32,000 nt of DNA from Candidatus Thorarchaeota archaeon (GTDB lineage: Archaea > Asgardarchaeota > Heimdallarchaeia > Heimdallarchaeales > Heimdallarchaeaceae): assembly GCA_048883065.1 (NCBI GenBank), contig JBHLQZ010000003.1, positions 7,096-39,095 of the forward strand, in the 5' to 3' direction. How positions within the stretch are numbered: position 1 is the stretch's first letter; each line of letters begins with the position of its first letter. The position numbers were made by a program, and so were the translations under genes. The notes under the pieces are model-generated. The model was not told where the DNA came from, made no database searches, and worked only from the letters and a program-made list of their open reading frames with translations. Positions 12,160 through 20,981 of the stretch are shown in pieces.

Positions 12160-13188
12160 ATGTTCGAGTGGATAGAACTTATTTTAATGATAACTGTCCC
12201 TGGTATCATATTCATCATAATCATGGGCTTGTTCATCGATTGGGTGGATAGAAAAGTATATGCCAGAGGACAAAATAGAAAAGGTCCACCATTTCTACAA
12301 CCACTTTATGACCTTGTCAAACTAACAGCTAAAGAAACGATAATTCCAGAAGGTGTGAGTAAGTTCTGGATGACAGTCTTACCAATACTTTACATTGCTA
12401 CAGCTCTTACTGGAGCTCTTATGATACCAATCGTCGTACTTAATCTTGATGGCCTTGTAGCAGGCTTTGCATCATTTAAGTTCGATGTTTTCTTTGTTCT
12501 ACTTGTTTTACTAGGATATGGATTACTCATCTATTTCTTAGGATATATAACAAAGAATCCTTTTGCTCAAACTGGTGCAACAAGATCATTACTACAGGTT
12601 TTAAGTTTCGAAATTCCCCTTGGATTCTGCCTTCTTGTACCTATACTTATTGTTGGTATAGGAGAACCAAACGCAGAATTCAGTTTAGCATACATTAGCA
12701 CAAATCTATTTCCAAAAGTAGGAGATAATCCATGGTTTATAATTGGACTAGTAATAGCAATTGTTATCTCAATTATTGTGTTAATGGCTGAACTAGAGGA
12801 ATTTCCGTTCGATTCCCCAACAGCACACACAGAACTAGCTGATGGTTGGTTGGTTGAATATGGTGGATGGAGATATGCTTTGATTCATCTCGGTGAAAGA
12901 ATAGGTGCATTTTTCATTGGCGGACTAATCGTAACTTTGTTCCTTGGAGGACCACATGTTGGTCTTCAATTAACAAATATAGTTAACTTTCCTGCCTTAT
13001 ATGGTCTATTGAATCTAATTTTCTTCTTAATTAAACTAATACTTGTAATAATCGTAATGTCTTTCTTACGTACAATTATCTCTCGTATTAGAATAGATCA
13101 GACTGTAAGATTAGCTTGGAAATATATTTTACCTTTTGCTATAATTGCACTAATTCTAACAATAGGTTTTCAACTAATAGGAGTGTAA
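12160..13188 (+). CDS. NuoH/HycD/MbhM-family membrane subunit of a group 4 [NiFe]-hydrogenase
   Basis: Polytopic membrane protein with the family motif [25 protein letters not shown]...KETIIP and the acidic loop [17 protein letters not shown]. Confidence 0.85.
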
Positions 13189-13192
13189 AAAA

Positions 13193-13588
13193 ATGGAACA
13201 ATGGTATTTCGCATTACTAATTGATTTAGCCGTTTCACTTCTGGTTGTGCTACTTGTTTGGTTGATAAGTAAAAGAGTAAGAAAGATACTCGGAACTCAA
13301 CCACCTACTCAGAGTGAGATGAAAAAAGATCTATTCTCTAGTGGTGAAGGTTCAATAAAAGCAGAACCTAGAAAAGTCTTCATTGATACATACATCTTCA
13401 TAGCTTTCTTTGTACTCTTTGATGTATCTGTGTTTATCCTTGCAACAGCTTTCTTTGTTTCAGGAAACACAATAATTGCTGCTTTGATTTATGCTGGTAT
13501 TGTACTTATTACTCTGCTAGTAGCAGTTAAAAAGAAATATCCCAGAGAAGCTATGGATCCGATCTATGAAGGAGGTTCAGAACTATGA
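13193..13588 (+). CDS. NuoA-like small membrane subunit
   Basis: 131 aa with 3 predicted TM helices. The loop-plus-TM2 pattern SSGEGS...[25 protein letters not shown] resembles the NuoA Y-E-[CS]-G...FyLvAilFvlFDvE motif. GGAG RBS is present. The stop overlaps the next start (ATGA). Confidence 0.55.
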
Positions 13589-14091
13589 GTGGAATAACAA
13601 TTGGAATTTATATACTAATGATAGCAGCTATTGTAGCAGCTATTTTTGCTCTAGAATACAAGAATTTGATGGTTTCAGTGATAAGCTTAATTGCTATGAA
13701 TCTCTTCGTATGGGGAGTGTTGCTTATCTTTGATGCTATTTTACTTGCTTGGGTACAGTTGATAGTATATGGTGGTGGATTAACCGCACTATTTATTGTA
13801 GTAGTAGCTTTGACAGAAAGACAACTGGATGAAACATTTGATTGGCGAAGAACAGTAATTGCTTTATCTGTAATTGCTATTATTGTTGGTGTGCTAATTT
13901 GGGCTATTATCGCATACGATATAACCTCAATTACAGCAACTTGGTCAGAAGGCATATTCAGTAATATGTGGGAAGAAAGAACTCCAGATATAATTCTACA
14001 AGGAATTATCTTCTTCACAACTTCTATTGCAATAGGTGTACTGTTCTTACAACATAAAAAGAAGAAAGTTAAGGAGGAGACTAAAGCATGA
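13585..14091 (+). CDS. NuoJ-like membrane subunit
   Basis: 168 aa and hydrophobic. [22 protein letters not shown] resembles the NuoJ Q-x-x-VY-x-GA-x-x-VLF-x-F motif. ATGA overlaps occur at both ends of the gene. Confidence 0.55.
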
Positions 14092-14399
14092 TAGATCAAG
14101 TACTTCTTCTGATTTTCGCATTAATCTTATTCGGTGTAGGATTATATGCTCTACTAGGTAAAAGAAACATAATCAAGATACTTATGGGTATAGAAATAAT
14201 GACAATTTCAGTCAATGTTGTGTTTATTGCCCTTGGTACAGATCTCGCTGGAAACTTTACAAAATTTGCACAAATCTTTCCTTTGATTTCATTAGCTGTA
14301 GGAGCTGCAGTTATGGCACTTGGACTAGCAATTGTTATCAATAACTATCGTCACGCGAAAGGTGTGGATAGTGATGAAATGGCTACATTGAAGAGGTGA
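14088..14399 (+). CDS. NuoK/MnhC-like membrane subunit
   Basis: 103 aa with 3 TM helices. GLYALLGKRNIIKILMGIEIMTISVNVVFIAL matches the NuoK/MrpC pattern, including the conserved intramembrane Glu. Confidence 0.7.
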   Translation: MIDQVLLLIFALILFGVGLYALLGKRNIIKILMGIEIMTISVNVVFIALGTDLAGNFTKFAQIFPLISLAVGAAVMALGLAIVINNYRHAKGVDSDEMATLKR

Positions 14400-19200: not shown

Positions 19201-19212
19201 TTTTTATTCACC

Positions 19213-20469
19213 TCAGAAAAAAGGTCTATTATACCTCTTTGCTTTAATTGCTTTTTTAGCAAATTCATCTTGATGCATAACCATTTTTTCACCTGTTTTA
19301 TCATTAATAATCATAACCCTATTTGTACAAGAGAAACATGGATCGTAGCTTCGTAAAATTACAGGCATATCTGCAATGTATTCGCCATCCATTCTTTTTA
19401 AAGAGGCATCAATATTACCTAAAGATGGTGCTCTGATCTTATATCGCTCTGGTTTATCCGTACCATTTGCTATACCATAATGGATGTCTTCACCTCTGGG
19501 GGCTTCAGCTCGAGTCATATAACTTCCTTCTGGAATTCTAGGTTTAACTCTAAGTAATAATTCACCTTGAGTAGATTCTAGTCTATCAAGAACTTGATTA
19601 CATATTCGAAGAGATTCCAAGGTTTCATCTACTCTTACTAAAGTTGTTGCTAAAATATCTCCTTCAGTATAATAAACCATATTCCAGTCAATTTTATCAT
19701 ATAACTCATAAGGATAAGATTTCCTAACATCAAATGGGAGTCCTGATCCTCTTCCTGTTGGGCCATTAGGTGTTGTTTTCTTAGCATCTTCTTTTGTAAG
19801 AATTCCAACATTTTCTAATCTATTTCTTATTGATGCTTCTTCAGTGAAAACCTTTCTGTGATATTCAACTTTTTTAATAAGTTCATTAATACGTGGTTTT
19901 GCTCTTTTAATTTTCTCTGGAGGTATATCTCTTTTTACACCACCAGGGAGCATTAATGCTGGATTAACTCTGTTTCCACTGAAATCTTCTACTATGTCCA
20001 TTATAATTTCACGATCCCTCCATGTAATATGTAACATAGTATCAAAACCTGCATCATGAGCTAAGATTCCATACCATAGAATATGAGAATGAACACGTTC
20101 TGCTTCTAAACTAAACATTCGTATTAATCTTGCTCTTTCAGAAATCTGATCTTCAACTCCTGCTAATCTATCAACTACACGAACATAGACATTTTGATGA
20201 ACAGCACTACAAATACCACAAGCTCTTGGAACAAGCATTGTATTTTGCCTCCAAGTTCTAGCTTCCATAGCTTTTTCAATTCCTCGAAGATTGAAACCAA
20301 TACGAATATTTGCCTCAACAACCCTTTCTCCTTTAACATGAATGATGAAGTGAGCTGGTTCTTCAGCCCAAGGGTGCTGTGGTCCAATAAAGATGTGATG
20401 ATCCGCATCAGCTGGTGCATCACTTCCATCTGTTAATGTTCTAAATCTAGATCTATACGCTTCTGTCAT
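19213..20469 (-). CDS. group 4 [NiFe]-hydrogenase large (catalytic) subunit, NuoD/MbhL/EchE-like
   Basis: N-terminal Ni-Fe motif RACGICSAVH (20197-20226) and C-terminal motif DPCFSCTNR (19318-19344), followed by a 34-aa extension. ATG 20469 (MTEAYRS...) sits 2 nt after the nuoC-like TAA and has a GGAGG RBS. An alternative ATG at 20520 would overlap the upstream gene by 49 nt. Confidence 0.9.
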   Translation of the reverse strand: MTEAYRSRFRTLTDGSDAPADADHHIFIGPQHPWAEEPAHFIIHVKGERVVEANIRIGFNLRGIEKAMEARTWRQNTMLVPRACGICSAVHQNVYVRVVDRLAGVEDQISERARLIRMFSLEAERVHSHILWYGILAHDAGFDTMLHITWRDREIIMDIVEDFSGNRVNPALMLPGGVKRDIPPEKIKRAKPRINELIKKVEYHRKVFTEEASIRNRLENVGILTKEDAKKTTPNGPTGRGSGLPFDVRKSYPYELYDKIDWNMVYYTEGDILATTLVRVDETLESLRICNQVLDRLESTQGELLLRVKPRIPEGSYMTRAEAPRGEDIHYGIANGTDKPERYKIRAPSLGNIDASLKRMDGEYIADMPVILRSYDPCFSCTNRVMIINDKTGEKMVMHQDEFAKKAIKAKRYNRPFF

Positions 20470-20471
20470 TT

Positions 20472-20981
20472 TTAATCCTCCTTTGATATTTTCAAGGTTA
20501 TATCTCTCAATTGTTCCCATGTGTATTCCTTTCGCAAAGGTCTTACGTCATCAGGCCATTTCTCTGGTAATATTAATCTCTGTAAGAATGGGTGATTTTC
20601 AAAGTAAATACCAAAGAAATCATACACTTCTCGCTCATAGTAGTCTGCTGCAACAAAGAAATCTATCATACTAGGGGTCTTTGGATTCTTTTTGTCTATC
20701 TTAGTTACTATAAAATTAATTGGCACTTCCCTAAATTCTTCTTCTATCCTGTGTTGGATATGATAACAGACCTGAAATTCTTCTTCTTTTTCAATTCCAG
20801 ATATTGTAGTTAAATGATATATCCCAGCATCTTCGTGAAGAATTTTCATCAGATTGTAAGCATTTGTTGCTGTAGAATGGACATCAAAATGTCCTTCTTC
20901 AACCTTAATAATTTCTTCTACGAGATTTTCTGGCAAAGTAATATTTAAAATTCCTTCTAATTCCTTGAGTACTTCGCTCAT
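20472..20981 (-). CDS. NuoC/MbhK-like hydrogenase subunit
   Basis: 169 aa. The C-terminal pattern YYEREVYDFFGIYFENHP...RLILPEKWP is typical of the NuoC/30-kDa family. GGAG RBS is present. It is the first gene of the peripheral-arm operon. Confidence 0.8.
   Translation of the reverse strand: MSEVLKELEGILNITLPENLVEEIIKVEEGHFDVHSTATNAYNLMKILHEDAGIYHLTTISGIEKEEEFQVCYHIQHRIEEEFREVPINFIVTKIDKKNPKTPSMIDFFVAADYYEREVYDFFGIYFENHPFLQRLILPEKWPDDVRPLRKEYTWEQLRDITLKISKED

Follow-up and report, generated by a model that had tools for sequence, protein, structure and literature searches.

A group-4 [NiFe] hydrogenase on a complex I plan predicted from two convergent operons of a Heimdallarchaeaceae genome

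Gene content of the locus

The window analysed here is a stretch of 32,000 nucleotides (positions 7,096 to 39,095 of contig JBHLQZ010000003.1, assembly GCA_048883065.1), deposited as Candidatus Thorarchaeota archaeon and assigned by GTDB to the Heimdallarchaeaceae. It contains two operons that face each other: six genes on the + strand in the order H-A-J-K-L-N, named here after their Nuo counterparts in complex I, and four genes on the - strand in the order C-D-I-B. A prediction made earlier from the sequence alone had read these ten genes as a [NiFe] hydrogenase with the architecture of complex I. We found all ten open reading frames (ORFs) where it had placed them (Table 1), as well as the start/stop overlaps it had reported for A-J (ATGA), J-K (ATGA), K-L (GTGA) and L-N (TAATG). 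Sequence comparisons support a group-4 [NiFe] hydrogenase whose peripheral arm is of the NuoB/C/D/I type and whose membrane arm is of the NuoH/A/J/K/L/N type.

The neighbouring genes, among them those for aRF1, an RPA-like OB-fold protein and TtuA, represent an archaeal gene set. Relatives of the large subunit at 81-92% identity all came from Heimdallarchaeota metagenome-assembled genomes (MAGs) or complete Ca. Heimdallarchaeum genomes, and homologues of L carry the name Heimdallarchaeaceae. The window sequence is nearly identical to contigs of a 2025 sediment metagenome run.

We scanned 30 ORFs of the window with Pfam and NCBIfam profiles. As predicted, neither NuoE/F/G nor a third PF00361 protein was among them; the small-subunit families of Mrp were likewise absent, and the window held no further NuoD or NuoB paralogue. 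The best NCBIfam matches of the subunits were Nuo models, all below their cutoffs except that of L. Two start codons deserve mention: L begins three codons later in the database version (609 aa), and B may begin at ATG 18727 instead of TTG 18736. A scan of the convergent junction for terminators and promoters gave nothing useful, archaeal promoters being outside the scope of the tool.

Table 1. Position of the hydrogenase genes and associated features in the window
Feature	Position	Strand	Support
NuoH/MbhM-like membrane anchor, 342 aa	12160..13188	+	PF00146 1.5e-67
NuoA-like subunit, 131 aa	13193..13588	+	PF00507 27.8 bits (cutoff 23.3)
NuoJ-like, fused five-helix form, 168 aa	13585..14091	+	PF00499 7e-12
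NuoK-like subunit, 103 aa	14088..14399	+	PF00420 3.7e-20
NuoL-like distal antiporter-like subunit, 612 aa	14396..16234	+	TIGR01974 441 bits (cutoff 407.5)
C-terminal lateral region of L (lateral helix HL + transmembrane helix TM16)	16019..16228	+	AlphaFold2 model
Proximal antiporter-like subunit, N-type, 496 aa	16234..17724	+	PF00361 3.9e-61
Hydrogenase small subunit / NuoB-like, 160 aa	18254..18736	-	PF01058 3.6e-30
NuoI/HycF-like 2x[4Fe-4S] ferredoxin subunit, 155 aa	18733..19200	-	several Fer4 families
[NiFe] large subunit / NuoD-like, 435-aa ORF	19213..20520	-	PF00346 + PF00374
34-aa C-terminal extension of large subunit	19216..19317	-	translation
NuoC-like subunit, 169 aa	20472..20981	-	PF00329 5.5e-28
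x228, 228 aa	21089..21775	-	conserved, directly upstream of nuoC
hypE	8580-9608	+	Pfam AIRS/AIRS_C
hypF	9602-11998	+	HypF domains
hypD	22123..23223	-	PF01924 4.2e-135
HycI-family maturation endopeptidase	24951..25502	-	PF01750 2.9e-12

The catalytic core is of the hydrogenase type

In the NuoD-like subunit, translation confirmed both predicted ligand motifs, RACGICSAVH (L1, 20197-20226, - strand) and DPCFSCTNR (L2, 19318-19344, - strand); both are intact and hold all four ligand cysteines. The protein more likely starts at M17 (ATG 20472) than at the first codon of the ORF, which gives 419 aa; this ATG is preceded by AAGGAGG and overlaps the nuoC stop codon by one base. At the other end, the claimed C-terminal extension follows the Arg of DPCFSCTNR and is 34 aa long. 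The alignment with the MbhL chain (6cfw) stops just before this extension, which is presumed to be the substrate of a HycI-type protease and to be cleaved. The hyp and endopeptidase genes that the original prediction had placed around it were recovered by Pfam matches as hypD, hypE, hypF and a HycI-family protease gene: hypE-hypF lie directly upstream of nuoH, while hypD and the protease gene lie beyond the C-D-I-B operon.

As a stand-in for a subgroup assignment of the large subunit we ranked its nearest solved-structure matches by bit score. MbhL came first (238 bits), followed by HycE (198), MbsL (173) and NuoD (~167). In NuoB of complex I, tandem cysteines ligate cluster N2. The small subunit encoded in the window lacks this tandem Cys-Cys and shows GGCNGCDIE (a CxxC), GNCC and GCPP, and the translated I subunit has two CxxCxxCxxxCP motifs. 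The L1/L2 cysteines, the CxxC small subunit, the extension and the linked HycI and hyp genes bear out the claim of a genuine [NiFe] hydrogenase. NiFe motifs, a short CxxC small subunit, NuoH-type and antiporter-like subunits and a maturation set, that is, the sequence features of group 4, were all found. Thus, the subunit resemblances and the CxxC small subunit indicate that a catalytic core of hydrogenase type is combined with a membrane arm of complex I format.

The membrane arm follows complex I

Profile searches with the three small membrane subunits of 131, 168 and 103 aa returned the predicted families NuoA (PF00507), NuoJ (PF00499) and NuoK (PF00420). The NuoA identity is weakly supported by a score above the Pfam cutoff; in an alignment the subunit shares the F-x-SG and FDV motifs with E. 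coli NuoA, and its solved-structure match reached an E value of 0.86 only. The J subunit can be aligned with E. coli NuoJ over its full length and retains the Tyr of transmembrane helix (TM) 3, while its MbhD profile match was limited to E 0.009. In relatives from the Hodarchaeales, Bathyarchaeia and Atabeyarchaeia, J is split or short. The K subunit scored 52 bits against NdhE, 42 against NuoK and 38 against MbhG; it retains the Glu of TM2, and the equivalent of E. coli E72 is absent. For H, MbhM (104 bits) was only marginally closer than NdhA (96) and NuoH (90).

Judged by its sequence, the L subunit is unambiguously a bona fide NuoL. It matched E. coli NuoL with 257 bits (MrpA: 149) and keeps every key charged residue (E156, D195, K237, K275, H352, H356, K360, K417 and E418). 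The second antiporter-like subunit is less simply placed. Among solved structures it scored highest against MbhH (182 bits), followed by MbsH (166), MrpD (129), NuoM (127) and NuoN (97-124). Its TM12 residue is a Lys (K402), as in NuoN and NuoL, whereas NuoM has a Glu. In relatives with three antiporter-like subunits, the Lys-bearing paralogue is the one closer to it (33-36% versus 28-30% identity). Given the TM12 Lys and this closer Lys-type paralogue, the inventory of 'complex I minus NuoM' put forward in the original prediction fits, with a single N-type subunit.

Most pumping residues of the N subunit are retained. At the position of the TM7 Lys (K217 in E. coli NuoN; MbhH also has Lys) it carries T220, and the same Lys-to-Thr exchange was present in every Heimdallarchaeia N subunit examined. 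By eye, the Hodarchaeales-type N subunits of two loci (L051 and L052 in our numbering of the fetched loci) also lack the TM8 Lys, with SGIITLGG where the window has SGIVVKAG. The claim that the membrane arm is 'not the Ech or Mrp/Mbh set' stands for its format, but not for the nearest relative of every subunit: by score, D, H and the proximal antiporter-like subunit lie nearest to MbhL, MbhM and MbhH.

Lateral helix length follows the number of antiporter-like subunits

In complex I the L subunit ends in a lateral helix and TM16. This region is about 23 residues shorter in the window protein than in E. coli NuoL and T. thermophilus Nqo12: in HMMER alignments, residue 579 lies opposite NuoL 557 (of 613) and residue 597 opposite Nqo12 568 (of 606). 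An AlphaFold2 model of L (mean predicted local distance difference test, pLDDT, 86) placed TM15 at 513-534, short helices at 542-558, a 23-residue helix at 563-585 and TM16 at 590-611. It has been described that a 26-aa insertion in the lateral helix accommodates an extra pumping subunit in the Nitrospira 2M complex I and in Manganitrophaceae (Yu et al. 2022, PMC9040806).

We measured the L tail in two ways, from an FVKP-type motif in a MAFFT alignment of the fetched loci and from a YxDxxY motif in a 64-sequence alignment, with 14 sequences lacking a motif match omitted. Counted from the FVKP-type motif, the tail measured 36-38 aa where two antiporter-like genes are present (seven Heimdall L and one Bathyarchaeial locus with K-L-N), 59-72 aa with three (E. 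coli, Atabeyarchaeia, a Methanobacteriota MAG and several Bathyarchaeia) and 93 aa with four (Bathyarchaeial locus L023). From YxDxxY the corresponding values were 43-47, 71-81 and 102 aa, and the longest class reached 131 aa. Each antiporter-like gene thus corresponds to a step of 27-30 residues, or about 40-45 Å of helix. The tail of 43-47 aa was uniform in more than 45 Heimdallarchaeia sequences. In two previously unexamined loci with a short-tailed L, one from a Hodarchaeales MAG and the other from another Heimdallarchaeota MAG, each operon held exactly two antiporter-like genes, and no third one was found in any Heimdall locus with intact flanks, single-operon forms included.

A short tail, together with tail length that tracks gene number, argues that the complex is built for L plus one further subunit. 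The discovery of a NuoM gene elsewhere in the genome had been named as something that would overturn the original prediction; with an L tail about 23 aa short and a tail length that follows the number of antiporter-like genes, such a gene appears unlikely. This relation favours a real two-antiporter arm over an artefact of incomplete gene sets, and it offers a predictor, from sequence alone, of the number of antiporter-like subunits in complex-I-type enzymes.

Two Bathyarchaeial loci extend the series. The gene order of the first (L023:1075-7725, - strand) is K-N-L-N-N, with four antiporter-like genes, and the tail of its L measures 93-102 aa. Four such genes and a long tail point to a [NiFe] hydrogenase whose membrane arm is longer than that of complex I. 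The second (L047:3867-6131, - strand) is cut, and its L has 131 aa after YxDxxY. This tail contains a tandem duplication of a ~29-aa unit (LVFDKIT[S/P]VVSGLSISLGNRLFR), which suggests that the lateral helix lengthens by duplication of one ruler unit.

Two probable halves of one enzyme

The block x228-C-D-I-B, where x228 denotes a gene for a 228-aa protein, was found in all 22 Heimdall loci, with x228 directly upstream of nuoC in 20 of them. The position of the membrane-arm operon is more variable. H-A-J-K-L-N is convergent with and adjoins C-D-I-B in seven Heimdall loci, lies upstream on the same strand in one (L022) and is displaced in eight. The displaced arrangement resembles an inversion of a gyrA-gyrB-...-hypEF-HAJKLN block, and in one such case hypEF-HAJKLN was confirmed on the same contig. 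In the window, gyrA-gyrB-miaB (43-6257) lie beyond hypEF-HAJKLN; in L003-L006, L012, L014, L015 and L019 they lie beside nuoB. An inversion of ~18 kb with one breakpoint next to the gene for the hydrogenase small subunit could account for this difference. The convergent layout of the original prediction is therefore present in the window as described, but it is one of several arrangements even within the family.

Other linkages persisted. hypEF remained joined to HAJKLN in L002, L010, L016, L018, L022 and L050; hypD lies upstream of x228-C-D-I-B in nearly all Heimdall loci, and a HycI-family gene is kept near the cluster. The hypEF-HAJKLN and x228-CDIB blocks thus share a neighbourhood through several rearrangements. 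Hodarchaeales-type relatives, whose D is 47-48% identical to that of the window with NiFe motifs and extension intact, carry a single operon A-B-C-D-H-I-J1-J2-K-L-N, which is the canonical complex I order minus M. From this single operon we conclude that the split layout is a derived rearrangement in the Heimdallarchaeaceae. The single-operon form further argues that the two halves make up one enzyme, as does NuoH, which is required for docking of the peripheral arm and has its only gene in the + strand operon. Both the A-J-K-L and the B-I-D region are represented among contigs of a wetland metatranscriptome that are 80-95% alike; coming from relatives, these contigs are weak evidence.

Relation to known enzymes

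Complex-I-like hydrogenases with a shortened membrane arm have been reported from Heimdallarchaeia, including Heimdallarchaeaceae, by Appler et al. 2024 (bioRxiv 10.1101/2024.07.04.601786), who distinguished subgroups 4j, 4m, 4p and 4q of the group-4 [NiFe] hydrogenases, presented AlphaFold2 multimer models whose reading agrees with ours and proposed ferredoxin docking at NuoI, as in NDH-1. The window enzyme comes from the same lineage and is the same thing: it has a Heimdallarchaeia host, NuoBCDI with a NiFe-bearing NuoD, no NuoEFG, L plus one N-type subunit and a shortened L tail. The novelty implied by the original prediction does not hold, since this kind of enzyme had already been described; the prediction correctly rediscovers what had been published. 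Four points are absent from the main text of the preprint: the shortened lateral helix, x228, the exchange of the TM7 Lys for Thr and the operon rearrangements. Our analysis adds the helix-length ruler, the assignment of the second antiporter-like subunit as N-type, with an affinity to MbhH and without the TM7 Lys, the history of operon rearrangement and x228.

Two further groups of archaeal enzymes come close. The hydrogenases of Atabeyarchaeia and Freyarchaeia (Valentin-Alvarado et al. 2024, PMC11291895) have three antiporter-like subunits and a full-length lateral helix, and their large subunit is reported to be related to those of Heimdallarchaeia. They are likewise Asgard [NiFe] hydrogenases with an L-like subunit that bears a lateral helix, and the Atabeyarchaeia large subunit is 41% identical to that of the window. 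However, Atabeyarchaeia locus L032 has the order K-L-M-N, with two subunits beyond L and a tail of 62-71 aa, whereas in the window one such subunit goes with a tail of 36-45 aa; the window has a fused J, these enzymes a short or split one. Hfo of the Bathyarchaeia (Loh et al. 2021, PMC7886697; HydDB group 4g) is an 11-subunit Fpo-like [NiFe] hydrogenase. It shares the NiFe ligands in its NuoD homologue, a set of complex I format, and the absence of both the N-module and the Mrp sodium module, and Bathyarchaeial large subunits are 41-47% identical to that of the window. Its L, M and N stand in Fpo gene order, while the window has no M-type gene and the order H-A-J-K-L-N plus C-D-I-B.

Mbh of Pyrococcus furiosus (group 4d, PDB 6CFW) is the best solved-structure match for D, H and the proximal antiporter-like subunit of the window, and presumably shares the ferredoxin-to-H2 chemistry. 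It differs in its MbhA/B/C/F Mrp module, in separate MbhD, E, G and I and in a single antiporter-like subunit, MbhH; the window lacks this module, has a fused NuoJ in place of MbhD plus MbhE, and encodes NuoA as well as a second antiporter-like subunit, of NuoL type, that carries the lateral helix and TM16. Ech (group 4e) has six subunits with one antiporter-like EchA and no A, J, K or L, compared with ten including A, J, K and L in the window. Complex I (Nuo/Nqo, NDH-1, Fpo) shares the format H-A-J-K-L-(M)-N plus B-C-D-I, with lateral helix and TM16 on L. In the window enzyme, however, a NiFe site replaces the quinone site, CxxC stands in place of the tandem cysteines of N2, and two instead of three antiporter-like subunits are present; the lateral-helix region is ~23 aa shorter, NuoK has no second Glu, and N has no TM7 Lys. 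The Nitrospira '2M' complex and the Manganitrophaceae complex I_3 (Yu et al. 2022, PMC9040806) follow the same ruler, with ~26 aa per antiporter-like subunit. Those quinone-linked complexes gained subunits and a longer helix, while the hydrogenase of the window has one subunit fewer and a shorter helix.

An intermediate has been proposed between membrane-bound hydrogenases and respiratory complex I. Enzymes of this kind are its closest living analogues, and their host lineage comprises the archaea nearest to eukaryotes. Their significance for the hydrogenase-to-complex I transition has already been set out in the literature; the enzyme is a worthwhile experimental target even though its kind is known.

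Proposed function and alternatives

We propose, with a probability of roughly 0.72, that the ten genes encode an energy-converting group-4 [NiFe] hydrogenase that is bound to the membrane, follows the plan of complex I, has exactly two antiporter-like subunits and works as a ferredoxin-to-H2 ion pump. Its peripheral arm would consist of C, D (with the NiFe site), I (two [4Fe-4S] clusters) and B (one proximal [4Fe-4S] cluster), seated on NuoH. The membrane arm would run from H through A, J and K to the one N-type subunit and on to the distal NuoL-type subunit, whose shortened lateral helix and TM16 would clamp back across the single intervening N subunit. A low-potential carrier, probably ferredoxin, with the nearby flavodoxins as further candidates, would reduce the I subunit, and electrons would pass along the three [4Fe-4S] clusters to the NiFe site, where protons would be reduced to H2. 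This redox step could power translocation of H+ or Na+ via the H/A/J/K channel and the N and L subunits, and the reaction should be reversible. The large subunit would be matured by HypC/D/E/F-type chemistry and then trimmed at its C-terminus by a HycI-type protease.

Several points weigh against this proposal. In L021, a more distant Heimdall locus (64% identity), CDIB has no HAJKLN at a distance of up to 10 kb. In the monomeric L model, the confidence of the lateral helix is only moderate (pLDDT 57-78). With Thr at TM7 of N and without the second Glu of NuoK, the K-N charge relay would be unlike that of complex I, and the N subunit may not pump in the canonical way. We infer the electron donor, direction, ion and stoichiometry, the first three by analogy with Mbh, Ech and photosynthetic complex I. 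Electron transfer from ferredoxin to H2 would also yield little energy, and only at very low H2 pressure could it readily drive three outward ion paths. This energetic limit suggests either a lower stoichiometry, perhaps reflected in the altered K/N relay, or frequent operation in an H2-uptake mode that consumes the gradient.

The latter idea leads to the reversed direction as the regular one: the enzyme would take up H2, and the ion gradient would push electrons uphill onto ferredoxin or flavodoxin, as has been proposed for Ech of methanogens and Hfo of Bathyarchaeia. Such a role was put forward for the related Hfo by Loh et al. 2021 (PMC7886697). Having several ion paths for each pair of electrons would suit a gradient consumer better than a weakly exergonic ferredoxin-to-H2 pump, and two flavodoxin-family genes lie in the neighbourhood. 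On the other hand, Appler et al. 2024 predicted H2 production from ferredoxin for the Heimdallarchaeia complexes, and cultured Asgard relatives are H2-producing syntrophic peptide degraders, though via other hydrogenases. We regard the reversed direction as possible, if somewhat improbable. Quite unlikely, by comparison of L tails, is an incomplete ten-gene set, with a third, NuoM-type antiporter-like gene elsewhere in the genome that would supply the last subunit of an 11-subunit Hfo/Fpo-like hydrogenase. Related Bathyarchaeia, Atabeyarchaeia and one Methanobacteriota MAG do have three or four antiporter-like genes, and Appler et al. 2024 cautioned that ORFs might be missing from their multimer inputs. 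Yet all the three-antiporter enzymes examined have an L tail longer by one unit (~23-27 aa), and the short tail is uniform in more than 45 Heimdallarchaeia sequences. The Heimdall operons with intact flanks hold no third gene.

The two operons might also belong to separate machines, with C-D-I-B forming a hydrogenase module that has another partner and H-A-J-K-L-N forming an independent Mrp-like cation/proton antiporter or the arm of another oxidoreductase. They are indeed separable, being non-adjacent in ~9 Heimdall loci, and L021 fits this picture. Nevertheless, NuoH and NuoA are subunits of the interface with the peripheral arm and foreign to Mrp, C-D-I-B includes no gene for a membrane anchor, hypEF are joined to the HAJKLN operon, relatives carry everything in one operon, and no other NuoD or NuoB paralogue is present in the window, all of which makes separate machines very unlikely. 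Hardly credible is an ordinary quinone-reducing complex I (11-subunit Nuo/Fpo-like, without N-module) whose hydrogenase motifs are relics. The NCBI annotation does name the subunits NADH-quinone oxidoreductase, in line with the Nuo models as best NCBIfam matches (below cutoffs, except for L). This conflicts with the four NiFe cysteines in intact L1/L2 motifs, the C-terminal extension, the linked HycI protease and hyp genes, the CxxC of the small subunit in place of the N2 tandem cysteines, and the scores of D, which are higher for MbhL and HycE than for any NuoD. Moreover, the modelled cavity is inaccessible to quinone (Appler et al. 2024).

Within the preferred reading of a ferredoxin-to-H2 pump with two antiporter-like subunits, the Heimdallarchaeaceae enzyme might have lineage-specific features that change its working beyond that of a shortened complex-I-like hydrogenase; we consider this doubtful. 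In such a case x228 might serve as an eleventh subunit or as an adaptor at which the electron carrier docks, a carrier for which the linked flavodoxins are candidates, and the N subunit, without its TM7 Lys and next to a NuoK without the second Glu, may be a passive or differently gated element. If N were passive, the real stoichiometry would be below that implied by two antiporter-like subunits.

Neighbouring genes

x228, restricted to the Heimdallarchaeaceae, gave no match in Pfam or NCBIfam, and Foldseek found none in the PDB (best E 1.7). Its 36 homologues are without a Pfam domain, and every named one is from Heimdallarchaeota. The AlphaFold2 model has a pLDDT of 88 and a predicted template modelling score (pTM) of 0.89, and two cysteines, C44 and C95, are invariant. 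Roles as accessory subunit, assembly factor or regulator are conceivable. A tandem winged-helix regulator was considered from the secondary-structure pattern and could not be supported.

Two flavodoxin-family genes (7576-8073 and 23324-23884, both + strand) flank the hydrogenase region; both match PF12641, with a BilS-like assignment below the NCBIfam cutoff. In many Heimdall loci one flavodoxin gene adjoins hypD and the other lies near hypE, and the two may be redox partners of the hydrogenase. Between the operons, 17849-18217 (+ strand) encodes a 122-aa protein with ~4 predicted membrane helices and no family match. This protein is probably outside the complex, because its homologue stays beside nuoB in a locus where H-A-J-K-L-N is elsewhere (L015).

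A tRNA-Ser (GCU) gene was identified by Rfam and ARAGORN at 8416-8500 (+ strand), between a flavodoxin gene and hypE. Close to it, at 8172-8295 (- strand), a GC-rich island of ~124 nt stands out from the AT-rich DNA. It matches RF00001 over the full length with 23.3 bits (gathering score 38) and is probably a divergent Asgard 5S rRNA gene that falls below standard thresholds.

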